A stretch of 35,941 bases of DNA from Anaerolineae bacterium (GCA_029933115.1 JAOZOT010000004.1:1-35941), one strand, 5' to 3'. Shown: positions 10,733 to 28,510, counted from the stretch's first letter. Numbers and translations are program-made. The notes: generated by a model not told the origin, from the letters alone.

Positions 10733-10768
10733 AAATGCCTCGCGAGGGCATCGGCTCTGTCCGAGATA

Positions 10769-13700
10769 ATGGATGGCGAGCAGCACGTTGCTTTCAGGGA
10801 GTATTCAAAGGTGAAGGTGACCCCTAATAGCAGCACTACTAATAGAATAGACCAGGCCAGGTTAGCCAAATTGTCCTCGCTTAACTTCTCCATTCGAGAG
10901 GGACTGGAAAACCTGTATCAGACCATTGCCCGGGCTGCGGCAGAGATTTTTGAGATGCAAATTTCGGCCGTGATGGTGCTCTCAGAAGACAATCGCTACC
11001 TGGAGATGGCAGCGGCCGTAGGACTGCCAGAGGATACCTCGTCTGGAAAAATCTTCTGCGGGCAGGGGATCTCTGGCAAGGTGGCCGATTCGGGCCGGCC
11101 TTTCGTCACCGATGACATTACCAGATACCTGTCTGAACAGGGCATCGAGGTGGAAAGACACTATCGGGCCGCTTTCGCCTCCGTGCCGATGATGGCGGGC
11201 GGGCGCATCATTGGCGTTCTCAACGTCTGCGACCCCCAAAATGGCGCGGCGATCACTGAGCACGACCTGAGCCTCCTCACCATAATGGCCAACCAGGCAG
11301 CCACCGCCATCAACAACGCTCGTCTTTACACCAACCTCCAGCGCCGTGTTGATAACCTGGCTGTGATCAACGAAATAGGGCGGGCCATCAGTGCCATGCT
11401 CGAACCAGAAACACTCCTGAGTACTATCGTCGAGACCAGCGCTCAGCTTCTGGATTGTGATTACGCGACCATCTTCCTGCCTGACCAACATGATGGGTAC
11501 TTTGTCCCCCGGATGAGCTACAGATATGAACTGGAGGAGGCAAAGCGCCTTCACTTTGCCCCTGGTGAGGGACTAGTCGGTCACGTGGCTGCAACGGGTG
11601 AGGCGTTGATTGTGCCCGATACCAGCACCGACCCACGCTTCTCGCCTGGGCCCGTCGAGGTGGGTTCCATGCTGGTGGTTCCCCTGTCTACCAGGGACAA
11701 GGTGATAGGAGTATTGACGGCCGAAAAGAAGGAAAAAGAGGGGTTTGACGTCACCGATCAACTCCTCCTATCCACCCTGGCCGATCAAGCGGCTATCGCT
11801 ATCGAGAACGCTCGCCTCTACGATTCTGAGCAGGCCCGGCGGCGTTTGGCCGATACTTTACGCCAGGTGTCGGAGGTGGTGAGCTCCACTCTGGAACTCA
11901 GCGAGGTTCTGGAATTGATCCTGGACCAACTGCGAAGGGTGGTGGACTATGACAGTGCCTCCATCCAACTCCTGGTGGGAGATCGCCTGGAGATTATCGC
12001 CGGCCGGGGCTTTGCCGATGTGGATAAGGTGATTGGGCTTTCCTTCCCCCTCGATGGCCATAACCCCAATCGCCACGTCATCGCTGAAAAGAAATCCCTG
12101 ATCATACCCGATGCTCCGGCTGTTTATGAAGCCTTCCGTCAAGAACCTCACTCCCACATCCGCTCCTGGTTGGGGGTGCCCCTGCTGTTCAAGGACAAAG
12201 TGATAGGCATGATCGCGCTGGACAAGACGACGGTGAATTACTACACCGAAGAAGATGCGCGCTTGGCTATGACTTTTGCCCTTCAAGCTGCTGTAGCCCT
12301 GGAGAACGCCCGTCTTTATAAAGAAGTACGTCAACGAGCGGCTCAACTGGAGGCCACGAGCGAAGTTGGCCGACGTATCATCTCCATCCTCGACCTCGAT
12401 GAATTGCTCCACCAGGTAGTCGAACTTATCCGGCAGATTTTGGGCTACTATCACGTCCACATCTTCCTCGTTGATTCCGCGGCCAACGAGGCTGTTTTCC
12501 AGGCGGGCGCCGGCAAGATCGGACGGCTCATCGCAGAACAAGGCGGGGTGCGCCTTAAGATCGGCGAGCAGGGCATCATCGGCTGGGTGGCCGGTGCCGG
12601 CCAGCCTTTGCTGGTGAACGACGTCTCGCAAGAGCCAAGATATGTGCCTAACAAAGCCCTGCCTGACACCAAATCCGAACTGGCAGTGCCATTGAAGATC
12701 GGAGAGCGAGTCATTGGCGTCCTGGACGTACAAAGTGATGAACTGGGGGCTTTTAACGCCGAGGACATAGCTATATTGCAGACCTTGGGCGATCAGGTAG
12801 CCATCGCCATCGAGAACGCACGCCTGTACAAAGAGCTCACTCGCTCTGCCCAAGAGTTGGAACAAAAGGTTGAGGAGCGAACTGAGGAGCTGGCCCAGGC
12901 CCTCAGAGACCTCACTGCGGAACGCGACCATGTTGAGACCCTTTACCGCATCACCAGAGACCTGGGAATCAGCCTGGACCTCGATCGGGTTTTGATTCAG
13001 GCTCTGGCTCTGATTAATGAGGCCGTGGGAGTGGAGCACGGCTCCATCATGCTGCTCGATCACGAATCGGGTAACCTCATCTACCGTGCGGCTCTGGGCC
13101 GTGATAAGCCTCTGCCGCGCGGAGGCAAGATGACGGACTTTAGAAAAGGTGTGGGACTGGCCGGCTGGGTCCTGGAGCACCAGGAACCGGTCATCATCGA
13201 GGATGTATCCAAAGATGAGCGCTGGCTGGTGCGCCCCGGCCAGGAGCGGGTGAGCAAAGCGACTCTGGCTGTGCCCCTGGTGACGGACGGAGATGTTCTG
13301 GGGGTCCTTCTCCTCCACCATCCTCAGCCGGGCTATTTCAACGAGACCCATCTCAAGCTGGTCTCGGCGGCGGCCAGTCAGGTTGCCGCATCCATCAACA
13401 ATGCCGAACTCTACCGCATGATCAGAGAGTCGGCCGAGAGGCTAGGGGGCATGTTGCGTGCCCAGCAAGAGGAAGCCTCAAAGAGCCGCGCCATCCTGGA
13501 AGGCATCGCCGACGGGGTAATGGTCGCCGATGCCCGGGGCGACATTATCCTGCTTAACGCGGCGGCCGAAGAGATCCTGGGTGTTTCGCGGGAGGAAATT
13601 ACCGGCCGACCGATATATGAACTGAGCGGCCTCTACGGGGCAGAAGGCGACACCTGGCTCGCCCTGGTAAGGGAATGGGCCCAGGCCCTGCCGGCAGAAG

Positions 13701-15316
13701 GCGAGCCCGCGACCTTCGAGAGCCGCTTTGAAACCGAGGAAAAGGTAGTCAATGTGCACATGGCGCCGGTGTTGATGGGAGATGAATTCCTGGGCACAGT
13801 CTCTGTCTTCCGGGACATCACCAAAGAAGTAGCCATTGACCGCATGAAAAGCGAACTTATTTCCACCGTCTCTCACCAACTGCGCACTCCCATGACCTCC
13901 ATCAAAGGCTACACCGACCTGCTTTACCTGGAAACAGTGGGAGAAATCAACGAAGCTCAAAGGCGGTTCCTGAGCATCATCAAGTCCAACGCCGACCGCC
14001 TGGCCCTCCTGGCCAATGACTTGCTGGACATCTCGCGGATTGAAACCGGGCGGATCAGACTCAACCCCGAATTCCTCCACATAAGCGACATCATCGAAGA
14101 AATCGCTGCCTCCCTCCGAGGGCAAATTGAAGAGAAGGGCCTCAGCCTGAAGCTGGATATACCAGAAGGGCTGCCCCCGGTGTACGGGGATCGTGGCCGG
14201 GTGACTCAGATTTTGACCAACCTGGTTGACAACGCCCGCCAGTATACCCCATCTGGTGGTCAGATTACCGTCTCTGCCCAACTCAAAGACGGCCTCTTGC
14301 AGGTGAGCGTGGCGGATACGGGCATCGGCATCGCTCCTGAAGAGCAGGAGAAAATCTTTGATCGCTTCTACCGGGCCGATCACCCCCTTGTACAAGAGGT
14401 AGCCGGGACGGGCCTGGGCTTGCCTATCGCCAAGGCCTTCGTGGAAATGCACGGTGGCGAGATTTGGGTCGAGAGTGAGCCCGGCCAGGGAAGCACCTTC
14501 AGCTTTACCCTGCCTCTTGCAGAGAGGAAGAGGGAAGAGGAACTCACCCCCTTGCCTGTGTCCCTGGCTCCCTCCAAACAAATTCTGGTCGTGGAAGATG
14601 AGCCGGACATCGCAGAGTTGATTCGCTATCACCTGGAAGGCAACGGGTACAGAGTGACAACTGTCGCTCGGGGCGAAGAAGCCCTGGCCAAGGCCCACCA
14701 GGACAGACCAGACCTGATCACTTTGGACATCCGTCTCCCCGACATGGACGGCTTCGAAGTGCTGCAACAATTGAAATCCGATGAGGAAACGGCCGATATT
14801 CCGGTGGTGATCCTATCCATCGTGCCAGACCAGGGGGATGGTTTCCGCCTCGGAGCCGTTGATTACGTGACCAAGCCCGTTGACGAGGGAAGGCTGCTCT
14901 CGGCCATCGGCGCTATCCTGTCCAAGGAAGACTTGATCCTGGTGGTTGACGATGACCGAGACACCACAAGATTGGTACAGGAAGTGCTGGTCAGAGCCGG
15001 TTTTACAGTGAGGACAGCCAACAATGGATTTGAGGCCCTGGTCATAGCTCGGCGGGAGCAGCCCGGGTTGATCCTTCTGGATCTGAAGATGCCCGGCCTG
15101 GATGGCTACGAGGTCCTCAGACGCCTGAAGCAAGACAGGACCACACAAAACATACCCGTCGTGGTCGTGACCGGCAGCGTCACCGATGAAGAGGTAAAGC
15201 GCCAAAAAGTTTTGGCCCTGGGGGCAGCCCAGTTCTTAACCAAACCCTTTGCTATTGATGACTTTGTCGAGGAGATAAGGCGGGTTATGAGCGCTCCCGG
15301 CCCGATAGTCAGCTAA
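10769..15316 (+). CDS. Giant hybrid sensor histidine kinase: 5 x GAF - PAS - HisKA - HATPase_c - REC - REC
   Basis: Five GAF modules each end in an xENARLY-type helix (AINNARLY, AIENARLY, ALENARLY, AIENARLY, SINNAELY). PAS starts at ILEGIADGVMVAD. H-box SHQLRTPMTSIKGY, N-box NLVDNARQY, G-boxes DTGIGI / GTGLGL. Two receivers are present (ITLDIRLPDMDG; ILLDLKMPGLDG). The start is uncertain: ATG 10769 has no SD, and in-frame GTG 10811 is preceded by AGGGAG. Confidence 0.9.
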   Translation: MDGEQHVAFREYSKVKVTPNSSTTNRIDQARLAKLSSLNFSIREGLENLYQTIARAAAEIFEMQISAVMVLSEDNRYLEMAAAVGLPEDTSSGKIFCGQGISGKVADSGRPFVTDDITRYLSEQGIEVERHYRAAFASVPMMAGGRIIGVLNVCDPQNGAAITEHDLSLLTIMANQAATAINNARLYTNLQRRVDNLAVINEIGRAISAMLEPETLLSTIVETSAQLLDCDYATIFLPDQHDGYFVPRMSYRYELEEAKRLHFAPGEGLVGHVAATGEALIVPDTSTDPRFSPGPVEVGSMLVVPLSTRDKVIGVLTAEKKEKEGFDVTDQLLLSTLADQAAIAIENARLYDSEQARRRLADTLRQVSEVVSSTLELSEVLELILDQLRRVVDYDSASIQLLVGDRLEIIAGRGFADVDKVIGLSFPLDGHNPNRHVIAEKKSLIIPDAPAVYEAFRQEPHSHIRSWLGVPLLFKDKVIGMIALDKTTVNYYTEEDARLAMTFALQAAVALENARLYKEVRQRAAQLEATSEVGRRIISILDLDELLHQVVELIRQILGYYHVHIFLVDSAANEAVFQAGAGKIGRLIAEQGGVRLKIGEQGIIGWVAGAGQPLLVNDVSQEPRYVPNKALPDTKSELAVPLKIGERVIGVLDVQSDELGAFNAEDIAILQTLGDQVAIAIENARLYKELTRSAQELEQKVEERTEELAQALRDLTAERDHVETLYRITRDLGISLDLDRVLIQALALINEAVGVEHGSIMLLDHESGNLIYRAALGRDKPLPRGGKMTDFRKGVGLAGWVLEHQEPVIIEDVSKDERWLVRPGQERVSKATLAVPLVTDGDVLGVLLLHHPQPGYFNETHLKLVSAAASQVAASINNAELYRMIRESAERLGGMLRAQQEEASKSRAILEGIADGVMVADARGDIILLNAAAEEILGVSREEITGRPIYELSGLYGAEGDTWLALVREWAQALPAEGEPATFESRFETEEKVVNVHMAPVLMGDEFLGTVSVFRDITKEVAIDRMKSELISTVSHQLRTPMTSIKGYTDLLYLETVGEINEAQRRFLSIIKSNADRLALLANDLLDISRIETGRIRLNPEFLHISDIIEEIAASLRGQIEEKGLSLKLDIPEGLPPVYGDRGRVTQILTNLVDNARQYTPSGGQITVSAQLKDGLLQVSVADTGIGIAPEEQEKIFDRFYRADHPLVQEVAGTGLGLPIAKAFVEMHGGEIWVESEPGQGSTFSFTLPLAERKREEELTPLPVSLAPSKQILVVEDEPDIAELIRYHLEGNGYRVTTVARGEEALAKAHQDRPDLITLDIRLPDMDGFEVLQQLKSDEETADIPVVILSIVPDQGDGFRLGAVDYVTKPVDEGRLLSAIGAILSKEDLILVVDDDRDTTRLVQEVLVRAGFTVRTANNGFEALVIARREQPGLILLDLKMPGLDGYEVLRRLKQDRTTQNIPVVVVTGSVTDEEVKRQKVLALGAAQFLTKPFAIDDFVEEIRRVMSAPGPIVS

Positions 15317-15391: not shown

Positions 15392-17605
15392 GTGTTTCGC
15401 CCAATTGACCCAGCGAAATTGAGCCCCGAGGAACGCTACGAATACGAGCAACTATTGCAGCGAGCCAAGTCCTTCATCAAGGTCAAGGCCATCATCAACG
15501 GGGTGATCTGTCTTCTCTTCCTGGCCACTTTTCGGCCCTCCATCAAAATGGCCATGACTCTTATCGCCCTGGTTGACGGCCTCCTGTTGATTCCCTATTG
15601 GCTGCTGGTGCGACGCTATCCCGTCCTGTCTACTTTTATGAGCCTGGGCTGCACCGCCATAGCTATATCGGCCGGTGATTGGGTGGGTGGCTATCAAACC
15701 GGGGCCTCAGGCATCATGTACGCCCTGCTGATAACGGTAGCCAACTTGATCCTGATCCACTCCTGGAGCACTTATCTGGCGGCAGGGATCATCTCTGCCA
15801 TCTACATGGGCACCATCATTTTGGAAGTGAAGGGGATCGTGCCTATCGTCTTCCCCCATACCATGGCCAACCTGGCGCGGGTGGTGACGATAAATGTTAT
15901 TTGCTTCTATGGGCTGGCTGCCTTGTCCAACGTGGTGACGAAACTTTATCGCGAGATGCTCTACGCTCGCACCCACGCCGAGGAGATTGCCGAGCAACGT
16001 ACTGCGGAACTGCGGAAGAGCCACGCCGAATTGAAGCGCACCACGGCTCACCTGAGCGCCCTCCAGCGCCTCAGCGAAGCCCTGCGCCGGGCAAGGGGCT
16101 TGGAAGCGACGTTGCAAACAGTGGTCGAAGAGATGGACCGCCTGGGTTTCAGGAGCGTCATCATTAGTCTGCTGGATAAGGAAAGCCACAGCCTCGTCGT
16201 CAGAGCGGCCTCTGGGAAAGGCGAACTCTACGAACAGGTTCAGCAGGTGCTAAAAGTCCCCCTGATCGGTCTCACCGTCTCTCTGGAAGAGACGGCCAAC
16301 ATCACCGTCAGAGTGGCCCGCAGCGGGGAGATGGAAAGTACCGATGACGTCAGAGAAATGATCGTGGGCATAAAGCCGGCCGTGGATCCCGCTCTGGTGC
16401 AAGCGGCCATGCGCCTGATAAAGGCGGATTCTATGACCGTCTTTCCCCTCTGGGCGGAGGAAGAGGTGGTGGGAGTGGTGAGCATCTACCATCCGCAAGG
16501 CAAGCTCTCTGCGGAGGATATTCATCTCATGCAGGCCATTGCCGACCAGGCGGGCCTGGCCATCGAGAACGCTCGTCTCTTCGCCGAGACCGTCAGCGAG
16601 CGGGCCAAGCTGGCGGCCGTCATCGCCAGCACCGAAGACGCCATCATAGTGACCGACGAAACAGACCATATCCTCCTGCTCAATCCTGCAGCAAGGCGGG
16701 CCTTCAGGCTAGACGGGGAAGACTGGGGAGGTCAACCGCTGGCTGAGGTGGTGGAGAACCAGGCCCTGCACGATCTCTTCAACAGGCTGGCCGCAGAAGG
16801 CGTAGCCCAGAACGCTGAAATCCCTGTGGACGGGCGCACCTTCTACGCCAATCTGGCCCCCATCCCCGGGGTGGGCAAGGTGTTAGCCATGCAAGACATC
16901 ACCTACCTCAAAGAACTGGACCAGATGAAATCCGATTTCGTGGCTACCGTCTCCCACGACCTGCGTTCGCCCTTGAGCATAATTGACGGCTACACAGACT
17001 TGTTGCAAGAGGTGGGTAGCCTCAACGAACAGCAGCACCAATTTGTAGAAAGGATCAAAGTGGCAACGACGAACATGGTCCGGCTTGTCACCGACCTGCT
17101 GGACCTGGGCAAGATTGAGGCCGGCCTGGAGATGGAGATGACACCTTGTGACCTGGAAGACATCATTGACCCGGTCGTCACCAACTTGCAAGGGTGGGCC
17201 GAGCGCAAAGGAATCGAGTTGCGGGTCGAGTTGCCGGAAAACGTCCCTCCGATCCGGGGAGACTCCATCCGGCTTCGCCAAGTTCTGACCAACCTGGTGG
17301 ATAATGCCCTGAAGTACACTCACGAGGGGGGGACGGTGGCCGTTCAAATGTCGGTGGACAACGGCACTGTGACCGTGCGGGTCAGGGACACAGGTATTGG
17401 CATCGGCCCTGACGATCTTCCCCACGTTTTCGACAAATTTTATCGCGTGGAAGGGGAGGAAACACGCGATATTGCCGGTACAGGACTGGGATTGGCTATC
17501 GCCAAGTCTATCGTTGAAGCGCACGGCGGGCGCATCTGGGCGGAGAGCGAGCCAGGGGCAGGTAGCGTTTTCAGCTTTACTCTACCCGTTCTGGAAAAAG
17601 GCTGA
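15392..17605 (+). CDS. Membrane-anchored sensor histidine kinase: about 6 TM - coiled coil - GAF - PAS - HisKA - HATPase_c
   Basis: The N-terminal 190 aa or so form successive hydrophobic helices. The GAF ends in LAIENARLF. H-box SHDLRSPLSIIDGY, N-box NLVDNALKY, DTGIGI, GTGLGL. The GTG start is preceded by GAGGTGA. Confidence 0.9.
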   Translation: MFRPIDPAKLSPEERYEYEQLLQRAKSFIKVKAIINGVICLLFLATFRPSIKMAMTLIALVDGLLLIPYWLLVRRYPVLSTFMSLGCTAIAISAGDWVGGYQTGASGIMYALLITVANLILIHSWSTYLAAGIISAIYMGTIILEVKGIVPIVFPHTMANLARVVTINVICFYGLAALSNVVTKLYREMLYARTHAEEIAEQRTAELRKSHAELKRTTAHLSALQRLSEALRRARGLEATLQTVVEEMDRLGFRSVIISLLDKESHSLVVRAASGKGELYEQVQQVLKVPLIGLTVSLEETANITVRVARSGEMESTDDVREMIVGIKPAVDPALVQAAMRLIKADSMTVFPLWAEEEVVGVVSIYHPQGKLSAEDIHLMQAIADQAGLAIENARLFAETVSERAKLAAVIASTEDAIIVTDETDHILLLNPAARRAFRLDGEDWGGQPLAEVVENQALHDLFNRLAAEGVAQNAEIPVDGRTFYANLAPIPGVGKVLAMQDITYLKELDQMKSDFVATVSHDLRSPLSIIDGYTDLLQEVGSLNEQQHQFVERIKVATTNMVRLVTDLLDLGKIEAGLEMEMTPCDLEDIIDPVVTNLQGWAERKGIELRVELPENVPPIRGDSIRLRQVLTNLVDNALKYTHEGGTVAVQMSVDNGTVTVRVRDTGIGIGPDDLPHVFDKFYRVEGEETRDIAGTGLGLAIAKSIVEAHGGRIWAESEPGAGSVFSFTLPVLEKG

Positions 17606-17657: not shown

Positions 17658-18068
17658 ATGACAGAGACCATTCAACTCAGAGTGACCACAGAGGCTGACG
17701 TTTACGTGGCTGCTCATCAAGTCAAGGCCCTGGCCCGACAGATGGGTTTCAACGAAGCCGATCAGACACGTGTTGAAACCGTCACCTCCGAGTTGGCTCG
17801 CAACATCGTCCTTTACGCCGGCGAGGGGACCGTCAAAGCCCAGCCCGTGACCAGGGGCAGGCGGCGAGGGCTTGAGATTCAGGCCCTCGACCACGGACCT
17901 GGCATTGCAGACATAGAACTGGCTATGAAGGATGGCTATACCACCTCAGGAGGGTTGGGCTCGGGCCTCGGCGGGGCAAAACGCATGATGGACGAGTTTC
18001 ACATTGAATCGGCACCCGGCCAGGGCACCAAAGTCACGGCCACCAAGTGGCTGAACACACAACACTGA
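17658..18068 (+). CDS. RsbT-like serine kinase (GHKL/HATPase_c_2), divergent paralog 1
   Basis: About 136 aa. N-box ELARNIVLYAGEG, DHGPGI, G-rich lid SGGLGSGLGGAKRMMDEF. ATG at 17658 is preceded by GAGGAG. Confidence 0.8.
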   Translation: MTETIQLRVTTEADVYVAAHQVKALARQMGFNEADQTRVETVTSELARNIVLYAGEGTVKAQPVTRGRRRGLEIQALDHGPGIADIELAMKDGYTTSGGLGSGLGGAKRMMDEFHIESAPGQGTKVTATKWLNTQH

Positions 18069-18100
18069 ACACGAAAGCACGAAACACGGAGAAGAGTAAC

Positions 18101-18754
18101 ATGACTGAAAAGACCGACCTCGATCAATACAAAGAGTTCGTGAGAGAGCGCCTCAAATCCCTGCTCGATGTGGTGCAAAGCGTAGCCTCCGGTGATTTCT
18201 CCGTGAGAGTACAGATTCCCGAAGAGGAGGACGAGTTCACCGCTTTGTCCATCGAGTTGGAGAGAATGATAGATAAGCTGATTGAGGCCAACAAGGTGAG
18301 CGAGGAGAGGATGGCCAGACTGCAAGCGGCCGTGGAAGAAAAGGAGCGTCTGTTAAAAACAGTAGGGGAGCTCTCCTCACCGGTCATCCAGGTCTGGGAG
18401 AATGTGTTGGTTATGCCCCTCGTCGGAGCCATTGATTCGGCCCGGGCCGCGCGCATCATGGAAGACCTGCTGACCGGTATCACCAAATATCAGGCCGAAA
18501 TAGTTATCATTGACATCACCGGCGTGCCCGTGGTAGACACCGGCGTGGCTAACCACCTCATCCAAACTATCAAGGCCGCATCCCTTTTGGGAGCCAAATG
18601 TGTGGTGGTGGGCATCAGCGGTGAAGTAGCCCAGTCCTTGGTCAGCCTGGGTGTGGACCTTTCGGGGGTGGTTACCCGCAGCAACCTGCAAGCAGGCATC
18701 CGCTATGCCATGGAGACGATGGGGTTAGAGGTAGTGCCCAAGAGGGAGGAGTAG
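18101..18754 (+). CDS. RsbR-like STAS-domain protein with a short HAMP-like/coiled-coil N-terminus
   Basis: The C-terminal STAS closely follows the RsbR pattern: SSPVIQVWENVLVMPLVGAIDSARA ... IVIIDITGVPVVDTGVANHLIQ ... VVVGISGEVAQSLVSLGV. The N-terminal ASGDFSVRVQIPEEEDEFTALSIELERMIDKL resembles the HAMP connector plus AS2. I chose the ATG at 18101 (GGAGAAG upstream) over the overlapping GTG at 18047. Confidence 0.8.
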   Translation: MTEKTDLDQYKEFVRERLKSLLDVVQSVASGDFSVRVQIPEEEDEFTALSIELERMIDKLIEANKVSEERMARLQAAVEEKERLLKTVGELSSPVIQVWENVLVMPLVGAIDSARAARIMEDLLTGITKYQAEIVIIDITGVPVVDTGVANHLIQTIKAASLLGAKCVVVGISGEVAQSLVSLGVDLSGVVTRSNLQAGIRYAMETMGLEVVPKREE

Positions 18755-18761
18755 ACCAATC

Positions 18762-19151
18762 ATGGAAGTTACCCGTATTCCCATCCTGCAAATCGAAAAC
18801 TACCTGGTAGCTTCGATACAAACGGCTTTGCACGACAGGGCTGCTACCCAGTTCAGGGACGATCTACTGGAGCGCATCTACGAAACCAAAGCCCAAGGGC
18901 TGATCCTGGACCTGACGGCTGTGGATGTGGTGGATAGCTTCCTGGCCCGACTCACCGGCGATATTGCCGAGATGGCGGGCCTGATGGGTACGACCGTCGT
19001 CATCACCGGCCTGCAGCCAGAGGTGGCCATAACCCTGGTGGAGTTGGGAGTCGAACTGAAAGGGGTAACTACAGCCCTGAACCTGGAGAAGGGCATCGCC
19101 GCTTTGCGCAAAATGGTGGGGAAGGAAGGCGCTAATGGCACCACCGGCTAA
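18762..19151 (+). CDS. rsbS: RsbS-type single STAS-domain protein (stressosome scaffold / antagonist)
   Basis: It is collinear with B. subtilis RsbS as I recall it: IPILQIENYLVASIQ, FRDDLLERIYETKAQGLILDLTAVDVVDSF (conserved phospho-Ser context), VVITGLQPEVAITLVELGV. Confidence 0.85.
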   Translation: MEVTRIPILQIENYLVASIQTALHDRAATQFRDDLLERIYETKAQGLILDLTAVDVVDSFLARLTGDIAEMAGLMGTTVVITGLQPEVAITLVELGVELKGVTTALNLEKGIAALRKMVGKEGANGTTG

Positions 19152-19548
19152 AGAGCGGCGTATCCCTGTCAAAACCGAACTGGACATCGTCACAGCCCGG
19201 GTAGAGGGGCGAAACCTGGCCAGAGAACTGGGTTTTGGCACCATTGACCAGGCCCGTATCGCCACGGCCATTTCCGAACTGACACGCAACGTTGTCTTGT
19301 ACGCCCCAGAGGGCGAGGTGAGAGTCAGAGCCATCGTCTCAGACGACGGCAGGCGCGGAATAGAGGTGGTGTGCGAGGACAATGGCCCCGGGATAGCCGA
19401 TGTGGATCTGGTGATGCAGGACGGTTACAGCACGAGCTCCGGCCTGGGGATGGGCTTGCCCGGCACAAAGCGGTTGATGGATGAATTTAAAATCGAGACC
19501 GAATTGGGCGTAGGCACCAGGGTAACAGTGAGAAAGTGGCTAAGATGA
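19135..19548 (+). CDS. rsbT: RsbT-type serine kinase, canonical-position paralog 2
   Basis: ELGFGTIDQARIATAISELTRNVVLYA, DNGPGI, SSGLGMGLPGTKRLMDEF and VRKWLR are very close to Bacillus RsbT. It overlaps rsbS by 17 nt. Confidence 0.85.
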   Translation: MAPPAKERRIPVKTELDIVTARVEGRNLARELGFGTIDQARIATAISELTRNVVLYAPEGEVRVRAIVSDDGRRGIEVVCEDNGPGIADVDLVMQDGYSTSSGLGMGLPGTKRLMDEFKIETELGVGTRVTVRKWLR

Positions 19549-20123
19549 GGCGGATGGAGTTCGGCATAGTGCATCGCCCCAAACTTGGTCGTCATATCTC
19601 CGGCGATGCCTATCTGATCAAAGAAGGAGAAGAGGCTACCTTAATCTGCCTGGCCGACGGGTTGGGCAGCGGTGAGAAGGCAGCGGAAGCGGCTCAAACC
19701 GCCATCCGCTGCGTGGAGGTCAACAGCGCCCTGCCCTTGAGCGACATCATGACCCGTTGCCATCGGGCACTCAAGGGGACGCGGGGGGCAGTGATGGCTC
19801 TGATGCGCATCAGCTTTACCCAGAGTACGATGACCTTCGTAGGCGTGGGCAACATCGGCATCCATGTCCGTAGCACCGCGCCTATCAAGCCCATTTCGAG
19901 GAACGGCATCGTGGGGTATCGCCTGCCGCATCTGCGGGAATTCACCTTTCCCTACACCCCCGGCGACCTCTTCGTGCTTCACACCGATGGGATTTCAAAT
20001 CGCTTCATATTGGATAGCACTATATGGATGACAGGGACACAAGACGTGCAAATTCTGGCAGATGACATAGCCCGCAATTTCGGCAAGGAGGACGATGACG
20101 TCACCGTACTTGTAGCAAGGTAG
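19545..20123 (+). CDS. rsbX: RsbX-type small PP2C (SpoIIE-family) phosphatase
   Basis: ISGDAYL...LICLADGLGSGEKAAEAA, TRGAVMALMRISF...FVGVGNIG and LHTDGIS parallel B. subtilis RsbX. The ATG at 19545 forms an ATGA overlap with the rsbT stop codon. Confidence 0.8.
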   Translation: MRRMEFGIVHRPKLGRHISGDAYLIKEGEEATLICLADGLGSGEKAAEAAQTAIRCVEVNSALPLSDIMTRCHRALKGTRGAVMALMRISFTQSTMTFVGVGNIGIHVRSTAPIKPISRNGIVGYRLPHLREFTFPYTPGDLFVLHTDGISNRFILDSTIWMTGTQDVQILADDIARNFGKEDDDVTVLVAR

Positions 20124-20197: not shown

Positions 20198-22831
20198 ATG
20201 GTAGATTTGAGAGATTGGTTGAGGGAAAATGAAGAAGCGGTCGTGGGACGCTGGCTGAGAGCGATACAAGACAAAGCTATATCCCATTACGAAGGGTTAA
20301 CCGTAGATCAGTTGAAGGAGGAGTTGATCCCTCTATACTGCTGTCTGGTCAGCACGACCACTCTGGACAGCGTAGACATTGACACAGACACCACGGCCGC
20401 CTTAAGCGACTGGATGTTGGATCAACGGCTTAGCCGTTCCTGCACCCTGTCGGAGTTGCTGGAAATAACCTTTCAACTCCGGTCAACCATAGGCCAGGTC
20501 CTGGCAGAGTCTGGCGACCCTGCCTGGAGCATGACCATCTGGCAAAAATTGATCCCTTTCTTCGACCACGCAGCCACCACTCTGGCCGAACTCTTCACTC
20601 AGGCTATTGAAGACAACCTGATGGAACGCCTGAGAGAAGCAGAGATTGTGGCCAAAAGGTTGACTCTGGCCACCGAAGAAATTCGGGCGCTCAACCTGGA
20701 ACTGGAAGACCGCATAGAAGAGCGGACCAGAGAGTTGGCTAAAGAAAGGGACCACATGGAGGCCCTGTACAACATTGTCCGCGAGGTGAGTACCAGCCTC
20801 GACTTGGATACAGTGTTGCACAAGACCCTGAGCGTGGTCAGCGCCGCCGTGGGGGCCGAGCACGGTTCTGTCATGCTGTTGGATCCGCTCTCAGATGCTC
20901 TCGTCTACCGAGCTGTGCTAGGCCATGAGCAACCGCTGCCCAGAGAAGGCATCCCTTCAGCCTTTCGGCGGGGAGTGGGGTTGGTTGGCTGGGTGCTGGA
21001 ACACGGTCAGGCCGTCATTGTGAACGACGTCACCAAAGACGAACGCTGGCTGACCATGCCCGGCCTGGAAACCGAAGCCCGGTCAGTCATCGCTGCCCCC
21101 CTCGTCATAGGCAGCGACGTGCAGGGCGTACTCGTCGTCTCCGACACCCACCCCGACCACTTCACCGACGCCCATCTGAGATTGGTTTCGGCCGCAGCCA
21201 GTCAGATAGCTGCTGCGGTGGACAACGCTCAGTTGTACAGTTATGTCACCGATCAGGCCCAGCAATTGGGGCAAATGCTGCGTACCCAGCAGGAGGAGGC
21301 CAGCAAGAGCCAGGCCATCCTGGAATCCATCGCCGATGGAGTGATTGTCAACGATGTCCACGGGCGGATCTTGCTGATGAATCCCGCTGCCGAGCGCATC
21401 GTCGGCGTCCAGGGCAGCTCAGTCCTTGGGCAAGACGTGCGCACCGTCTTTGACGCCTTCACGCCAGATGGTCGAGAAAAAGCCCTGGCCGCCATGGAGT
21501 CCCTCATGGCTGGACTTTTACCCACGAACGCTGAACCACAGGTCGTCGAAACCATCTTGGAATTGGGCATGGGGAATCGAGTGGTCAACGCTCACCTGGC
21601 CCCGGTCATAACCAGAGGAGAAGAACTGCTGGGGGTTGTGACCGTCTTTCGAGACATCACGAAAGAGGTCGAAGCAGACCGGGCGAAATCAGAGTTTGTC
21701 TCCAACGTCTCCCACGAGCTACGCACACCCATGACCTCCATCAAAGGATATACCGACCTCCTGTACGCGGGTGTGGTGGGAGAGGTCAACGAGGAACAGA
21801 AAAGATTCCTCTCCATCATCAAGTCCAACGCCGACCGCCTGACTGCCCTCATCAATGACCTCCTGGATATTTCGCGCACGGAAGCGGGACGCACCGAACT
21901 GGAGCTCAAGCCCCTCCAGATGGGAGAAATTGTGCTGGAAGTGGCGAATTCTTTCCGCGAGCAGATAGAAAGCAAAGGACTCGAACTGATAGTGGACATC
22001 CCTGACAATCTGACCAAGGTGCGCGGCGACCGTGACCGAATCACCCAAATCCTGACCAATTTGATCGCCAACGCCTATCATTACACGCCGGCGGGCAGTA
22101 TAAAAATCTCTCTATCGCAGATGGACGACACCCTCAGAGTGGATGTCTCTGACACGGGCATCGGTATCGCCCCCGATGATCAGAGCAAAATATTTGACCG
22201 TTTCTACCGGGCTGATAACCCCGTAGTCCAAGACACCACCGGCACCGGTCTTGGCCTCTCCATCGTCAAGATGTTTGTGGAAATGCACGGAGGGCGTGTC
22301 TGGGTGGAAAGCGAACCCGGCAAAGGAAGCACCTTCACCTTTGTTCTGCCGACAATAGAAGAACCGGTAGAGGCCACATTGACTTTGCCGGCGGCTCACG
22401 AGCGAGAGGAAACAGAGGCCATCCTCCCCAAGAAGGGCAGCGTTCTCGTCGCCGAAGACGACGCTGATACAGCCCGCCTGCTAAAGAAAGTGCTGAGTCA
22501 GGATGGATTCGAGGTAGCAGTAGCTATGGATGGCTACGAGGTGGTAGCAACAGCCTGTCGGCAGAAGCCAGAGCTGATTCTGCTGGACTTGAAACTGCCT
22601 GGTATGGACGGCTATGAGACCATCACCCGACTGCGAAACGAGGCCGAAACCCGAGAAATACCGGTTATCGCCATGTCATCTCACCTTGAGGAAATAGAGA
22701 GAGTTCAGACCTTGGGCATAGAGAATATCCTGGTCAAACCCTTCACTGTAGATGAGTTGATAACCAAATTGGACGGGGTTCTAGAAAGCACGCGGCAGAG
22801 AGTCCGAGAGCGTTATGGTGCATCTTCTTGA
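20198..22831 (+). CDS. Hybrid sensor histidine kinase: novel N-terminal helical domain - coiled coil - GAF - PAS - HisKA - HATPase_c - REC
   Basis: The GAF ends in AVDNAQLY. PAS starts at ILESIADGVIVND. H-box SHELRTPMTSIKGY, NLIANAYHY, DTGIGI, GTGLGL, receiver ILLDLKLPGMDG. The first 150 aa or so match none of these domains. The start is either ATG 20198 or the upstream TTG 20180. Confidence 0.9.
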   Translation: MVDLRDWLRENEEAVVGRWLRAIQDKAISHYEGLTVDQLKEELIPLYCCLVSTTTLDSVDIDTDTTAALSDWMLDQRLSRSCTLSELLEITFQLRSTIGQVLAESGDPAWSMTIWQKLIPFFDHAATTLAELFTQAIEDNLMERLREAEIVAKRLTLATEEIRALNLELEDRIEERTRELAKERDHMEALYNIVREVSTSLDLDTVLHKTLSVVSAAVGAEHGSVMLLDPLSDALVYRAVLGHEQPLPREGIPSAFRRGVGLVGWVLEHGQAVIVNDVTKDERWLTMPGLETEARSVIAAPLVIGSDVQGVLVVSDTHPDHFTDAHLRLVSAAASQIAAAVDNAQLYSYVTDQAQQLGQMLRTQQEEASKSQAILESIADGVIVNDVHGRILLMNPAAERIVGVQGSSVLGQDVRTVFDAFTPDGREKALAAMESLMAGLLPTNAEPQVVETILELGMGNRVVNAHLAPVITRGEELLGVVTVFRDITKEVEADRAKSEFVSNVSHELRTPMTSIKGYTDLLYAGVVGEVNEEQKRFLSIIKSNADRLTALINDLLDISRTEAGRTELELKPLQMGEIVLEVANSFREQIESKGLELIVDIPDNLTKVRGDRDRITQILTNLIANAYHYTPAGSIKISLSQMDDTLRVDVSDTGIGIAPDDQSKIFDRFYRADNPVVQDTTGTGLGLSIVKMFVEMHGGRVWVESEPGKGSTFTFVLPTIEEPVEATLTLPAAHEREETEAILPKKGSVLVAEDDADTARLLKKVLSQDGFEVAVAMDGYEVVATACRQKPELILLDLKLPGMDGYETITRLRNEAETREIPVIAMSSHLEEIERVQTLGIENILVKPFTVDELITKLDGVLESTRQRVRERYGASS

Positions 22832-25800
22832 GGCTCTGAAACTGGAACAGAATAAGGTGGAAGAGACAAAGCCGGCTCCGACTGCCGGTGAGCAACGGTT
22901 GCTGGCAGAACTGGCGGCCTTGCAGCGCATCGGCCAAAAGCTCAACTCGACCCTGGACCTGGAACAGATCTTGGAGGCGGTTTTGCAGGAGGCCGTCGGA
23001 GTTACACCGGCTACCTGTGCCGGCATTTACCTCATTGACCAGGACAGCGGGCAATTGCGCCTGCGCGCCTGGCGCGGCTACAACCCGGAACAAGTAGCGA
23101 CCACGGAGAACGCCGAGGCCGGGTCAGCAGATGGCGTCATCCGCCAGGTGATTGAAACAGGTCAGACGGCCTCTCTCCCTGACGTAAGCCGGTTCCCCGG
23201 CCGCTATTGCTTGAATTCAGACACCCGCTCCGTTTTGGCCGTGCCCATCTGCTACGCCGGAGAGATAGCGGGCGTCATTAACCTCGAAAGCCCGGAAGCG
23301 GCAGCCTTCAATCCAGACAACATCCGCTTCCTGGAAATTCTGGCGGATCATACAGCCATGGCCGTTGGCAACATCCAGCGTTACGAGGATCAGGTAAGGC
23401 AAGGAGAGGCCCTGAGCCGTCGGGTGGAACAACTGGCTACCCTTTTTGAGATCTCTGGCGCTCTACGTATGGACCTGGGCCTTGAGGACATCCTGGAGCG
23501 GATCGTCCACGCCATCCCCGATGTGGTCGGTTTCAACAGGGCTCTGCTCAGTTGGGTAGAAGGAGATCCACCTTATTTAAAGCGCGTGGCATCGGCCGGG
23601 ATACCCCTTGCCGTTTTCAAACAACTCCAACGTATACGTCAACCTCTGGCTAAATTTGAGGCAGTCATGCGTCCAGAGTACCGCATTAGCAACTCCTACT
23701 TTATCCCCCACTACTGTCAGGAAGATTGGGAGAAAGATCTGGCTGTCTACACCCCGCCGGAGGGAGAGGAAAAGTGGCCCGAAGGGAAGTGGCACCCCGA
23801 TGACATGTTGCTGGTGCCCCTCAGAAGCGTGGACGGAGCCATATTGGGCCTGCTGTCCGTAGATGATCCCCAAGATGGCCTGATACCCAACCGCAGGACC
23901 ATTGAGACCCTGGAACTCTTTGCCAATCAGGCCTCTGTAGCTATCGAGAACTCCCGGCTCTTCGAGGAGCGAGAACGTCGCATCACAGAGTTGGCTACTC
24001 TCACCATCATAGGCCGAATCATCAGTTCGGTCATGGATCTGGACGAACTGATGGACAAGATCTACCAACAGGTCAGCCTGGTGATGGACACCACCAACTT
24101 TTACATCGCCCTCTACGACGAGGAGAAAAATGAGGTAAGCTTCGAGATCGAGGTAGAGGGCGGAAAGCGCCGTCTCAAGAGGAGGCGGGAGGCAGAGATC
24201 GGCCTGACCGGTTATATTATCCGCACCCGCCAACCGGTTCTGATCAAGGAAAACGTGCTTCAGTTTCACGAGGAGATAGGGGTTAAGCCCTCTGGTGAGT
24301 TGGCTCGGTCGTGGCTGGGGGTACCCATGATTGCTGCTGAGCGGGTAGTGGGCGTGATAGCCGTACAAAGCTACGACGAGGAAGGTGCCTACGACGAGGA
24401 ACACCGTGACATCCTGTTCACCATTGCCAACCAAGCCGCCATCGCTATCGAGAACGCCCGCCTCTTCGAAGAAGCCCGCCAGAGAGCCGCCCAATTGGAG
24501 GCCACAGCCGAGGTTGGCCGGCGCATTACCTCCATCCTCGATCTAGATGAATTGCTCTCCCAGGTTGTGGAGCTCATCCATCACATCCTGGGGTACTATC
24601 ATGTCCACGTCTTCCTGGTTGATGAGGCATCCAACGAGGTCGTCTTCCGAGCCGGCTCTGGCGAGACCGGACGGTTGATTAAAGAACGGGGCGGCCTTCG
24701 CCTCAAGATTGGCGAGCAAGGCATCATTGGCTGGGTGGCCGGAGCCGATTCGCCGCTGTTGGTCAATGACGTGTCGCAGGACTCGCACTATGTGCCCGAT
24801 GATGCCTTGCCAGATACCCGATCAGAGTTGGCGGTCCCGCTGAAGATCGGCCGGCGAGTCATCGGCGTCCTGGATGTCCAGAGCGACGAGTTGAACGCCT
24901 TTGACCCGGATGACGTGGCCGTGTTGCAGATCCTGGGTGACCAGGTGGCCATCGCCATCGAAAACGCCCGTCTGTTTGAGGAGACCTTGGCGCGGACGCG
25001 TGAGGTGATGGCCCTGGCAGAGACCGGCCGGAAACTGGCTTCCACCCTCGAACTGGACGCAGTCCTGGATTCCATCATGGATGCCTGTCTCGAGTTGTTC
25101 CAGGTTCGCCAGGCCTGCTTCATCATGATGGACAAAGACGGCTACCTGCGGATGAGACGCCACCGAGGGCTTAGCGAAGAATTTGTCCGCAGCATTGTGG
25201 GCCGACCAGGCGAAGGATTCTTTGGAAAGGTCTACCAGAGCGGCCAGCCCATTCTGATCAGAGACGCCCGTGAGCAACTCGACCCAGACACGGCCGAAGC
25301 AGTGAAGCGGGAAGGGATCATATCCTTCGTCCATGTGCCGGTCAAGGTCAAAGGCGAAACAGTGGCGGTAATGAACCTGACCTCATCGCAAGAAGACCGC
25401 CGTTTCAGCGAAAAAGACCTGGAGAAGCTGAGTGCTTTCGCCGACCAGGCAGCCGTCGCCATCGAGAACGCCCGCCTTTTCGAGGAAATCCATCAAAGAG
25501 CCCTCCAGCTTGAGACTCTGGTTGGAGTCAGTCAGCGTATCACCTCTGCTCTGAGCTTGGATGAATTGCTGTATCAGGTGGTACACCTCATCCAGCAGAG
25601 CTTTGGCTATTACCACGTGCACATCTACCTGGCCGATACTGAAGCGGGCTACATGGTCCTGCACGAGGGGACAGGAGAACCCGGGCGCAGCATGAAAGAG
25701 CGCGGCCATCGCATCAGAATAGGCGAAGGGCTGGTGGGTCACGTGGGGCAAAAAGGCGAAGCAGTGCTGGTCACCGATGTCAGCCAAGAGCCCCGCTGGC

Positions 25801-27197
25801 TGCCCAACCCCCTGCTGCCCGATACCAAATCGGAGTTGACCGTGCCCCTCAAGCTGGGCAATGAATTGCTGGGCGTGTTGGATGTCCAGAGTGACCGGGT
25901 GGGGGGGCTGACCGAGGACGATATGGCCCTACTGGAAGGGTTGGCCGGGCAGATCGCCGTAGCTATTGCCAACACACGGCTGTTTGAGCAGATGCAGGCT
26001 TACGCCCGCCAGTTGGAAGAACACAAAGCCACCCTGGAAGAGCGAGTGCGAGAGCGTACCGAGGAACTGGCGGCCGCCCTCCGTCACCAAAAGCTCGAAG
26101 CCGACAAGACCAGGGCTATTGTAGAAGGCATCGCCGATGGAGTCATAGTCTTTGACGCTGACAACAGAGTGATCATGGTCAACCCTGCCGCCGAGCGGAT
26201 GCTGAACCTACCGGTGCCCATCGTCCTGGGGCGAGACATGCGTGATCTCATCGAGGAAGCCGACGAAGCCTTCGACCGCGAGGCGACCCTGACGGTCTTG
26301 ACGGTGTTGAGCGCCATGATAGGCAGCCGGGAAAGGTTAGAAGCCGGAGAATCATTGACTCAGACGCGCTTCCAGCTCGGAGAAAGGACCATCGCCGCCA
26401 GTTTCACCTCGGTGGCCTTGACAGATGAGGAGTCTTTCAACATCGTAGCCGTCTTCCGGGACATCACCAAAGAAGCCGAGATAGACCGGATGAAGAGCGA
26501 GTTCCTCTCGATGGCGGCCCACGAACTACGTGCTCCTATGACCTCCATCAAAGGATACAGCGATATGCTCCTCCTGGGGTTGGCCGGGGAGCACGATGAG
26601 AGACAGAAACAATTCCTGAATACCATCAAGGCCAACGTTGACCGGGTGCTGGAGATGGTCAACGAATTTTCAGAAATCTCCCGCCTCGAGACCGGGACCC
26701 TGAAGCTGGACCTCAAGCCTCTTCCCATGGGCGATTTGGTGTCAGAAGTAGTGGTCTCATTACGGCCCCAGATCGAGGCCAAAAAGCTGAACTTGACCGT
26801 AGAAGTGCCACCAGACCTGCCTGAGGTATGGGGTGATCGCACCCGTATCATCCAAGTCCTGACCAATCTGGTCACCAACGCCTACAAGTATACCCCAGAA
26901 GGGGGAGGGATAGCTATCACCGCTCAGTGGGTTGACGATAGTGTGCAGGTGGACGTCGCTGATACGGGGATAGGCATCGCTCCTCAGGATCAGGACAGGC
27001 TTTTCACCCGTTTCTTCCGCGCCGACCACCCCGAAGTCCGACGAGTTGCGGGCACAGGTCTTGGCCTGTCCATCGCCAAGTCCATCATTGAGATGCACGG
27101 CGGACGCATCTGGGTGGAAAGTAAATTGGGAGAAGGTAGCACCTTCAGCTTCACCCTGCCTTTGGCAAACCGTGTGCAAAGAGAGTGGGAAATATAA
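22815..27197 (+). CDS. Giant sensor histidine kinase: 6 x GAF - coiled coil - PAS - HisKA - HATPase_c (no receiver)
   Basis: Six GAF modules (terminal helices AVGNIQRY, AIENSRLF, AIENARLF x3, AIANTRLF). PAS at IVEGIADGVIVFD. H-box AHELRAPMTSIKGY, NLVTNAYKY, DTGIGI, GTGLGL. The start overlaps the preceding kinase gene by 17 nt. Confidence 0.9.
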   Translation: MVHLLEALKLEQNKVEETKPAPTAGEQRLLAELAALQRIGQKLNSTLDLEQILEAVLQEAVGVTPATCAGIYLIDQDSGQLRLRAWRGYNPEQVATTENAEAGSADGVIRQVIETGQTASLPDVSRFPGRYCLNSDTRSVLAVPICYAGEIAGVINLESPEAAAFNPDNIRFLEILADHTAMAVGNIQRYEDQVRQGEALSRRVEQLATLFEISGALRMDLGLEDILERIVHAIPDVVGFNRALLSWVEGDPPYLKRVASAGIPLAVFKQLQRIRQPLAKFEAVMRPEYRISNSYFIPHYCQEDWEKDLAVYTPPEGEEKWPEGKWHPDDMLLVPLRSVDGAILGLLSVDDPQDGLIPNRRTIETLELFANQASVAIENSRLFEERERRITELATLTIIGRIISSVMDLDELMDKIYQQVSLVMDTTNFYIALYDEEKNEVSFEIEVEGGKRRLKRRREAEIGLTGYIIRTRQPVLIKENVLQFHEEIGVKPSGELARSWLGVPMIAAERVVGVIAVQSYDEEGAYDEEHRDILFTIANQAAIAIENARLFEEARQRAAQLEATAEVGRRITSILDLDELLSQVVELIHHILGYYHVHVFLVDEASNEVVFRAGSGETGRLIKERGGLRLKIGEQGIIGWVAGADSPLLVNDVSQDSHYVPDDALPDTRSELAVPLKIGRRVIGVLDVQSDELNAFDPDDVAVLQILGDQVAIAIENARLFEETLARTREVMALAETGRKLASTLELDAVLDSIMDACLELFQVRQACFIMMDKDGYLRMRRHRGLSEEFVRSIVGRPGEGFFGKVYQSGQPILIRDAREQLDPDTAEAVKREGIISFVHVPVKVKGETVAVMNLTSSQEDRRFSEKDLEKLSAFADQAAVAIENARLFEEIHQRALQLETLVGVSQRITSALSLDELLYQVVHLIQQSFGYYHVHIYLADTEAGYMVLHEGTGEPGRSMKERGHRIRIGEGLVGHVGQKGEAVLVTDVSQEPRWLPNPLLPDTKSELTVPLKLGNELLGVLDVQSDRVGGLTEDDMALLEGLAGQIAVAIANTRLFEQMQAYARQLEEHKATLEERVRERTEELAAALRHQKLEADKTRAIVEGIADGVIVFDADNRVIMVNPAAERMLNLPVPIVLGRDMRDLIEEADEAFDREATLTVLTVLSAMIGSRERLEAGESLTQTRFQLGERTIAASFTSVALTDEESFNIVAVFRDITKEAEIDRMKSEFLSMAAHELRAPMTSIKGYSDMLLLGLAGEHDERQKQFLNTIKANVDRVLEMVNEFSEISRLETGTLKLDLKPLPMGDLVSEVVVSLRPQIEAKKLNLTVEVPPDLPEVWGDRTRIIQVLTNLVTNAYKYTPEGGGIAITAQWVDDSVQVDVADTGIGIAPQDQDRLFTRFFRADHPEVRRVAGTGLGLSIAKSIIEMHGGRIWVESKLGEGSTFSFTLPLANRVQREWEI

Positions 27198-27227: not shown

Positions 27228-27608
27228 ATGACCACAATCCTAGTTGCTGAAGATGAAAGGGACATTCGAGAGTTAATCGCTTTCACCCTCCGCTTTGGCG
27301 GTTTCGAAGTGGAGGAAGCTATCAATGGGATAGAAGCGGTCGAAAAGGCGCGCAAACTCCGTCCGGACCTGATCCTCATGGACGTGCGGATGCCCAAGAA
27401 GACAGGCTACGAAGCCTGCCAGGAACTGAAAGCGGCGGACGAGACCAAAGACATCCCCATTGTCTTCCTCTCGGCCAAAGGACAGGAGGCAGAGATCAAA
27501 CAAGGTATGGAGTTGGGGGCTGTGGACTATATCCTCAAGCCCTTTGAAGCTGAACAGTTGCCCAAACGGATGACCGAAATCCTGGAGATGACCAAGCGCG
27601 GGAAGTGA
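27228..27608 (+). CDS. Single-domain CheY-like response regulator
   Basis: 126 aa. ILVAEDE, LILMDVRMPKKTG, FLSAKG and DYILKPF are present. GGAG lies 5 nt upstream of the ATG. Confidence 0.9.
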   Translation: MTTILVAEDERDIRELIAFTLRFGGFEVEEAINGIEAVEKARKLRPDLILMDVRMPKKTGYEACQELKAADETKDIPIVFLSAKGQEAEIKQGMELGAVDYILKPFEAEQLPKRMTEILEMTKRGK

Positions 27609-28433: not shown

Positions 28434-28510
28434 AAGCAGCCGGCCCTCCGAGCTATGCACCGTTGGGGGGTCTGGCCACATCCCAAAAGAGAAGATCAGG
28501 AGGTAATCAA

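Follow-up and report, generated by a model that had tools for sequence, protein, structure and literature searches.

The stretch of DNA analysed here (referred to as the window; 35,941 nt; GCA_029933115.1 JAOZOT010000004.1:1-35941) comes from an Anaerolineae bacterium, an uncultured member of the Chloroflexota, and carries five consecutive plus-strand genes that, judged from their sequences, form a stressosome-type R-S-T-X module that also has another kinase of the RsbT family and lies among histidine kinases. The first gene, T1 (17658..18068; Pfam HATPase_c_2, 3e-10), encodes a GHKL serine kinase of the RsbT family, belonging to a Chloroflexota 'upstream' subfamily (referred to as T1/Ta), and a GAGGAG ribosome-binding site lies 5' of its ATG at 17658. 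It is followed by R (18101..18754, with an ATG start codon at 18101), a soluble co-antagonist of the RsbR type that consists of a HAMP domain (8.1e-7; approximately 18149-18283), a coiled coil and a STAS domain (1.1e-16; approximately 18380-18658). Next come S (18762..19151; STAS, 7.4e-12), an RsbS-type single-STAS scaffold with a phospho-serine, T2 (19135..19548; HATPase_c, 6.6e-13), a canonical RsbT switch kinase, and X (19545..20123; SpoIIE, 8.7e-11), a single-domain PP2C feedback phosphatase of the RsbX type. The S and T2 genes share 17 nt, and T2 and X are joined by an ATGA overlap. An initial annotation of this DNA had described five open reading frames with these coordinates and overlaps; all were re-found, and the Pfam profiles (STAS, HATPase_c_2, SpoIIE) each found their domain in the gene where it was expected.

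Four of these products could be matched to proteins from well-studied systems. R aligned with the Listeria monocytogenes RsbR of solved structure (3.5e-33), and its 'IDITGVPVVDT' matches the 'IDITGVPVVDT' of that protein, so that the Thr171-equivalent is kept; further on, its 'EVAQS' pairs with 'EIAQT', making the Thr205-equivalent a serine. S aligned over its full length with Bacillus subtilis RsbS (8.7e-36) and with the STAS protein of entry 2VY9 (3.4e-31), which we take to be the Moorella protein MtS, and the serine in its 'VDVVDSF' pairs with the RsbS serine that was mutated to alanine in chain 9o4r_a. X aligned best with PDB entry 3ZT9 (labelled 'SpoIIE', and presumably Moorella thermoacetica RsbX, i.e., MtX; 3.4e-31), followed by B. 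subtilis RsbX (3W40; 1.1e-20). In both kinases, E46, N50, D79-x-G81-P-G83-I and the G100/G102/G104 lid are invariant in the alignment. The phospho-acceptors that the initial annotation had read from the sequence (the RsbS serine, the first RsbR threonine and a serine at the second RsbR site) agree with these structure-chain alignments, and its view that N-box, DxGPGI and glycine lid are retained in both kinases was likewise borne out. By these comparisons R, S, T2 and X are shown to be orthologous to experimentally solved stressosome components, with phospho-acceptors and catalytic motifs intact. Against their counterparts in the reference operon of Sporosarcina (rsbR-S-T-U-V-W-sigB-X), R, S, T and X share 50-58% identity. 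Moreover, comparison with five orthologous loci indicated purifying selection on all five genes (dN/dS 0.04-0.18; T1 0.13-0.15 and S 0.04-0.13), from which it follows that both kinases are maintained by selection.

The presence of a second kinase immediately upstream of rsbR raises the question of the family to which T1 belongs. T1 is 52% identical (139 bits) to the Sporosarcina RsbT vs. 29% (27 bits) to the RsbW of the same operon, and T2 shows the same pattern (58% vs. 28%). The 8,000 nearest database relatives of T1 are RsbT-type proteins, including the RsbT of the Sporosarcina sigB operon, and on RsbW-rooted trees (here and below built by neighbour-joining from approximately 134 columns, with 200 bootstraps) T1 falls within the RsbT radiation. 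That T1 might instead be an anti-sigma kinase of the RsbW/SpoIIAB type, with its sigma factor outside the window, draws on the matches of both kinases to the NCBIfam SpoIIAB model, which at 52-54 bits (52 for T1) stay far below the cut-off of 135. Given the identities and trees above, and since neither the 36 kb window nor any of the related loci has a sigma factor, we regard this explanation as extremely improbable. On sequence grounds both T1 and T2 are members of the RsbT family and not of RsbW/SpoIIAB. This agrees with the RsbT-like label that the initial annotation gave T1; a clustering of T1 with RsbW/SpoIIAB, which would have counted against its reading, was not seen.

To place both kinases, T1 patterns were used to collect related loci, 80 at species level from genomes and 80 from metagenomes (a sample that is no unbiased census; genes were called as longest open reading frames, taxonomic labels are those of the depositors of the metagenome-assembled genomes (MAGs), and loci are denoted by L-numbers). 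The T1-R(HAMP-STAS)-S-T2-X order is kept in every sufficiently long locus of the window's clade, i.e., in 4 genome loci, 3 of which are copies of one MAG sequence, and in 10 metagenome loci. All carriers are Anaerolineae/Anaerolineales MAGs, and the architecture is rare among the sampled loci, in line with its description as unusual in the initial annotation. A second Chloroflexota lineage has the arrangement Ta-R(2-4 paralogues)-S-Tb-X (L168 1677-10230, L169 1792-10215 and L171 9001-12867), in which the R paralogues comprise a 4xGAF-STAS protein (998 aa), a membrane-STAS, a sensor-HAMP-STAS and an RsbRD_N-STAS protein; these operons adjoin pyruvate:ferredoxin oxidoreductase genes and have no kinases nearby. 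Two sister loci from Anaerolineae (L008 and L044) read T1-(GAF-STAS)-X, without S or T2, and in a third, L166 (7001-8182), the gene for a T1-type kinase immediately precedes one for an RsbX-type phosphatase, and no STAS gene is present within 14 kb. These three loci and the window share synteny in the kinase array that is described below. In five loci (L008, L044, L168, L169 and L171), T1/Ta and an RsbR-type gene lie side by side or overlap, and wherever this subfamily was sampled it is encoded before an RsbR-type gene or before rsbX only. A T-R-S order with a single kinase upstream of rsbR was also seen in an Actinomycetota MAG (L073 7326-9740), so that a kinase-first order is not unique to the Chloroflexota. 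Roseiflexus castenholzii was considered as a possible cultured carrier and rejected; its PAS-STAS homologue stands alone, as genes for RsbS, RsbT and RsbX are lacking in its neighbourhood.

The initial annotation had called the kinase duplicated. T1 and T2 are indeed 52% identical and of equal length, as a redundant recent copy with the same role (for dosage or as a back-up) would be. However, they were sisters in 0 of 200 bootstraps. T2 grouped with Tb, the downstream kinase of L168 and L169, in 191 of 200. In the main tree, T1 clustered with the kinases encoded upstream in L008, L044 and L166, with the Ta proteins of L168 and L169, and with a protein (P0050) of a MAG that NCBI names 'Chloroflexia bacterium', by which the Ta subfamily of the second lineage also reaches that MAG. 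In addition, T2 lies nearer to a Bacillales RsbT (58%) than to T1 (52%), T1/Ta orthologues occur in lineages without T2, and the T1 subfamily has signature residues of its own. We consequently consider a recent redundant duplicate very unlikely. A second RsbT-family kinase is present, as annotated, but it is not simply a duplicate of T2; both kinases lie among the canonical RsbTs as two separate lineages, and by these trees and residues T1/Ta is a distinct, anciently diverged RsbT subfamily that in this survey is seen only in the Chloroflexota.

The signature residues of T1/Ta lie towards the N-terminus. They are numbered here on the Sporosarcina RsbT, in which the N-terminal 'WDIVAARQLGRN' motif provides Arg19, Arg23 and Asn24, with the same numbers as in B. 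subtilis RsbT (PMC12143880). That paper, citing Hardwick 2007, links these three B. subtilis residues to the binding of RsbU and shows them buried where RsbT and RsbU meet in a model of the complex. Position 16 is a tyrosine in 9/9 T1/Ta proteins vs. a valine in 31/40 canonical RsbTs, and Arg19 is found in none of the nine T1/Ta proteins vs. 35/40 canonical RsbTs and 5/5 T2/Tb proteins. At positions 19, 23 and 24 the T2 of the window has Arg, Arg and Asn, where T1 has Ala, Lys and Ala; in T2 orthologues and Tb, Asp replaces Asn24. Compared with T2, the predicted helix-1 surface of T1 is remodelled.

RsbT-like domains in other phyla bear on how T1 might act. The majority architecture elsewhere, found in Acidobacteriota, Bacteroidota, Proteobacteria, Nitrospirota and others, is R-S-T followed by an RsbT-like domain fused to PP2C (approximately 340 aa), an RsbT-like domain fused to HisKA-HATPase-REC (approximately 720-760 aa) and a REC-histidine kinase, so that each such locus has three RsbT-like domains. 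In L070, for example, the PP2C fusion lies at 8399-9427 and the hybrid-kinase fusion at 9562-11796, both confirmed by Pfam HATPase_c_2, and the same holds for most of L009-L165. The fused domains form clades of their own in neighbour-joining trees, with T1 and T2 placed among the free-standing canonical RsbTs, and score 70-120 bits against an RsbT profile vs. 208-222 bits for T1/T2, whose own scores are inflated by their inclusion in the profile alignment. Arg19 is present in 8/10 PP2C-fused and 8/8 histidine kinase-fused domains (16/18 in total). Two derivations from this architecture were tried and rejected: that T2 and X are a split RsbT-like/PP2C fusion, in which case T1 would be the genuine RsbT in a new upstream position, is contradicted by the grouping of T2 with canonical RsbT and Tb rather than with the fused domains, and that T1 is a detached RsbT-like domain of a hybrid kinase disagrees with the same trees and with the profile scores.

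These fused domains, by their attachment to a phosphatase and a hybrid kinase, suggest a general use of RsbT-like domains as docking modules for the STAS core, and T1, which has a full-length RsbT fold with STAS-kinase motifs, could accordingly be imagined as a competitor or tuner at the STAS sites of T2, setting its sequestration or release and having no target of its own. Nevertheless, the ATP-binding and catalytic motifs of T1 are all kept under purifying selection, and the loss of Arg19 together with the V16Y change alters the partner surface of canonical RsbT and makes competition for the same site less likely. We hold such a purely competitive role to be unlikely.

With respect to signal input, R departs from the usual design. 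Its HAMP domain scores 29.7 bits, above the Pfam PF00672 cut-off of 25. Among 111 sampled RsbR-type proteins, the N-domain was RsbRD_N in 87, HAMP in 10, protoglobin in 3, PAS in 3, GAF in 2 and Rsbr_N in 1; we attribute the 10 HAMP-type proteins to the window's own clade, the tally giving counts only and the attribution resting on the HAMP-positive orthologues. The HAMP domain of R is approximately 33-35% identical to that of the sensor-HAMP-STAS protein of L168/L169, and R looks like a truncated version of such a sensor-transmembrane-HAMP-STAS paralogue.

A different input domain is predicted on the gene that follows X, which encodes a hybrid histidine kinase (20198..22831, plus strand; N-domain, helix, GAF, PAS, HisKA, HATPase, REC; referred to as kinase 20198) and is a candidate output or parallel sensor of the module. 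Its RsbRD_N-like N-domain of approximately 140 residues (approximately 20198-20617) is continued by a long helix of approximately 70 residues (to approximately 20734) that leads into GAF-PAS-HisKA. The N-domain scored 23.1 bits with Pfam RsbRD_N, just below the cut-off of 24.3, aligned with RsbR N-domains in hhalign (E 1.2e-4, probability 55%), and had 18 relatives in an exhaustive search of 1.84 billion representatives; its distant relatives are RsbRD_N-(GAF)-histidine kinases that score above the cut-off (26.5-33.6 bits). An AlphaFold2 model of the domain (pLDDT 90.7) gave 3ZTA and 2BNL (B. subtilis RsbR) as top PDB matches in Foldseek (target-normalised TM 0.75, probability 1.0, E 0.02-0.16); we take 3ZTA to be the N-terminal domain of the Moorella protein MtR. 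The model therefore predicts a non-haem globin 'turret' domain of the RsbR type on kinase 20198, with HAMP only on RsbR itself. The initial annotation was right that R has HAMP and coiled-coil sequence in place of a globin-like N-domain; the globin-like domain is probably not absent from the locus, as it is predicted to reside on this kinase. A hybrid kinase with the same N-domain follows X in L166, L008, L044 and the window. A recent transfer of the domain from the RsbRD_N-STAS protein of L168 was also considered and rejected, as there was no BLAST similarity and the relationship is only remote.

The recurrence of T1, X and the globin-domain kinase as invariant parts of L166, L008, L044 and the window suggests another view of the locus, i.e., that two separate systems adjoin, with T1 and X serving the kinase array and R-S-T2 inserted between them. 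T1 would then be outside the R:S complex, and the substrate of T1 and X would be either the globin-domain kinase or a STAS protein whose gene lies in another place. The syntenic T1-X pair of L166, without a STAS gene, fits this view, and so do the identities: compared with the L168-type loci, the window's T2 is 71-74% identical to Tb, its S 73-74% identical, and the STAS domain of its R 73-78% identical to the RsbRD_N-STAS paralogue (78% for the 289-aa L168 protein), vs. only 54-58% for T1-Ta and 50-54% for X (overall 73-78% for R, S and T2 to L168/L171 proteins vs. 50-58% for T1 and X, fitting a different history of the two blocks). However, within the clade T1 and X evolve approximately twice as fast as the other module genes (pN 0.08-0.13 vs. 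0.02-0.08), a rate difference by which the identity gap could be explained. Moreover, the T...R(n)-S-T-X arrangement also occurs in L168, L169 and L171; as Ta lies next to an R-type gene there, the upstream kinase looks operonic, and X needs a substrate, for which R and S are the only ones in view. On balance we think two separate systems improbable, though worth keeping in mind. These identities and rates would fit either an entry of R-S-T2 as a block or an ancestral five-gene order.

The surrounding genes form an array, all on the plus strand, whose setting is constant in the window's clade: a REC-GGDEF protein, giant GAF kinases, the module, one or more GAF kinases and a small receiver. In the window the first gene (9845..10732; Pfam and translation, with conserved synteny) encodes a receiver with a degenerate GGDEF domain (motif AANDF), and its product is probably not an active diguanylate cyclase. 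It is followed by a hybrid histidine kinase with five GAF domains, a PAS domain and two receiver domains (10769..15316; Pfam), whose synteny extends to L006, L086-L094 and L166, and by a GAF, PAS, HisKA, HATPase histidine kinase (15392..17605; Pfam) that ends 52 nt before T1. The N-terminal region of the latter (approximately 190 residues) contains several putative transmembrane helices, as judged by eye, and was discarded as a homologue of the membrane RsbR paralogue of L168 since no similarity was found at E < 1e-3. An orthologue of this kinase with 63% identity lies upstream of T1 in L092, a size-matched histidine kinase reading frame occupies that place in L094 and a differently built GAF-histidine kinase in L008 and L044, and a counterpart is missing in L006 and L087. 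Downstream of kinase 20198, a histidine kinase with six GAF domains and a PAS domain (22815..27197; Pfam) is approximately 80% identical to the kinases that directly follow X in the closest relatives (L004, L006 and L092), and a stand-alone receiver protein (27228..27608), conserved in all related loci, closes the array. Because a scan of the window for promoters and terminators gave no signal above shuffled expectation, operon boundaries were drawn from strand and spacing only; by this tight packing the module is probably co-transcribed with the four histidine kinases and the receiver.

Outside the array, two alpha/beta-hydrolase genes, each followed by an overlapping gene for a V4R-domain protein, flank it on either side (5149-6805 and 27648-29131), of which the second pair is conserved in L004/L005. 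Further upstream (3423-5043), a DUF4388 protein gene precedes one for a small Ras/Arf-like GTPase; DUF4388/GTPase pairs are known from polarity or motility modules (MglA/MglB-like systems).

Domain and homology searches found no sigma factor, RsbU_N, RsbV or RsbW in the 36 kb window, and locus annotation gave no sigma factor, RsbU, RsbV or RsbW in the related Anaerolineae loci either. For RsbU_N, the E-value limit was 0.01 for the module's five proteins and both flanking kinases and 0.001 for the remaining proteins of the window, and no match appeared. The initial annotation had reported this absence and deemed it unusual. The absence stands; its unusual character does not, for the 8-gene operon is restricted to Bacillales, and rsbRSTX without sigB, followed by varied downstream signalling proteins, is the widespread form (Heinz et al. 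2022, PMC9237108). Two-component neighbours likewise predominate across the 160 surveyed loci, and a sigma-B-less rsbRSTX module is ordinary. Since most downstream modules are without RsbU_N (Heinz 2022, PMC9237108), its absence does not exclude membership of such a module. In a separate locus (L167 4543-7627), genes for a PAS-PAS-STAS protein, RsbS and RsbT precede one for a 348-aa RsbU_N-HisKA-HATPase kinase, by these domains a clear-cut case in which the known docking domain would connect a stressosome to a histidine kinase.

Taken as a whole, the locus is best explained, with about an even chance of being right, as a complete minimal module (R, S, T2 and X) within a kinase array, together with a second switch kinase, T1. 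R and S would build the STAS core, in which S would hold T2 and R would hold T1, so that two different switch kinases are sequestered by one core; upon a signal, each kinase would phosphorylate its own STAS partner and be released, and X would reset both. The pairing of T1 with R is proposed because T1/Ta adjoins an RsbR-type gene in the five related loci named above. Once released, T1 and T2 may act on different targets, as is suggested by the difference between their helix-1 surfaces. The initial annotation had proposed that each kinase may address a different flanking histidine kinase, for which the loss of the partner-binding Arg19 from T1 gives only indirect support. The most plausible targets would be the co-transcribed histidine kinases, with kinase 20198 as the leading candidate because it combines a predicted globin N-domain with a long coiled-coil linker, in a way similar to the N-domain and linker of RsbU that are rigidified by RsbT. 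Passages of PMC12143880 describe RsbT as binding the N-terminal dimerisation domain and linker, thereby rigidifying the coiled coil, and, with reference to Quin 2012 and Heinz 2022, also apply this mechanism to effectors of the GGDEF and histidine-kinase types in which RsbU_N is present.

Several observations weigh against this proposal. As RsbU_N is lacking from the window, there is no known docking site for RsbT and kinase 20198 is no more than a candidate target; at the same time, this kinase is missing in the window's closest relatives and can therefore not be an obligatory target. The two-kinase operons of L168, L169 and L171 have no adjacent histidine kinase, implying that the gene for the output does not have to adjoin the module. 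L166, with its T1-X pair, indicates that T1 can exist without an R encoded in cis, which weakens the T1-R pairing, and the exact T1+Ta set was recovered in only 74 of 200 bootstraps. The stronger claim that canonical RsbT on RsbS and the Arg19-less T1/Ta on RsbR constitute two non-interchangeable output channels of one Chloroflexota STAS core is one that we put forward as doubtful.

The closest known counterparts each share part of this design. The MtR-MtS-MtT-MtX set of Moorella thermoacetica (Quin et al. 2012; 2VY9, 3ZT9, 3ZTA) likewise comprises R, S, T and X without a sigma-B cascade and, as is proposed for the window, sends its output to a signalling enzyme and not to a sigma factor. It differs by having one kinase, a globin-like N-domain on R and an output, MtG, with RsbU_N, whereas the window has two kinases, a HAMP-only R, a predicted globin-like domain on a histidine kinase and no RsbU_N. 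The window's X is closest to 3ZT9, its S matches 2VY9 and the nearest fold of its globin-like domain is 3ZTA, the first two entries being those that we assume to be MtX and MtS. In Vibrio vulnificus and V. brasiliensis, rsbRSTX is similarly followed by two-component proteins, with no sigB, rsbU, rsbV or rsbW and no RsbU_N on the downstream kinase (Jia 2016, PMC4976288; Heinz 2022, PMC9237108); those systems have a haem-globin-coupled RsbR and a single RsbT, in contrast to the HAMP-only R and the extra RsbT before rsbR in the window. An interaction between RsbT and the kinase was not detected in Vibrio (Heinz et al. 2022, PMC9237108).

The rsbRSTUVW-sigB-rsbX operon of Bacillus subtilis and Listeria contains orthologous R, S, T and X with the same phospho-sites. 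It also has RsbU, RsbV, RsbW and sigma-B, X as the last of eight genes and several R paralogues, where the window has R-S-T-X in direct order, one R and a second kinase. The fused architecture of other phyla resembles the window in having more than one RsbT-like domain per locus and two-component neighbours, but its extra domains are fused, whereas the kinases of the window are free-standing and its X is single-domain. Most similar in layout is the Chloroflexia-type Ta-R(2-4)-S-Tb-X operon of L168, L169 and L171, with a kinase at both ends of the STAS genes and the signature residues of T1/Ta; it differs by its 2-4 R paralogues with GAF, membrane, sensor-HAMP and RsbRD_N inputs and by the lack of adjacent histidine kinases, as opposed to a single HAMP-only R inside a kinase array. 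The locus is thus clearly a known kind of system with lineage-specific twists, i.e., the T1/Ta subfamily, so far seen in the Chloroflexota only, and a HAMP-only R combined with a globin sensor predicted on a kinase. No description of a second RsbT paralogue or of a T-R-S-T-X order was found in the full-text literature that was searched, which did not cover every journal.

To our knowledge, every stressosome studied has a single switch kinase and effectively a single output. If the two-channel reading, put forward above as doubtful, is true, one sensing complex could send two differently gated signals to two targets, in this locus a pair of distinct histidine kinases of which one bears the predicted globin domain of the RsbR type. 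As all carriers found are uncultured MAGs, tests of this idea are confined to in vitro work or a heterologous host. The locus bears on the open question of how the stressosome signal is routed to two-component outputs. The existence of two RsbT lineages, one with a remodelled partner helix, offers a natural experiment on which surface of RsbT determines the choice of STAS partner and of downstream target. Finally, extra RsbT-like domains are the rule outside the Firmicutes in this survey, and RsbT-fold modules may generally dock effectors to the STAS core.

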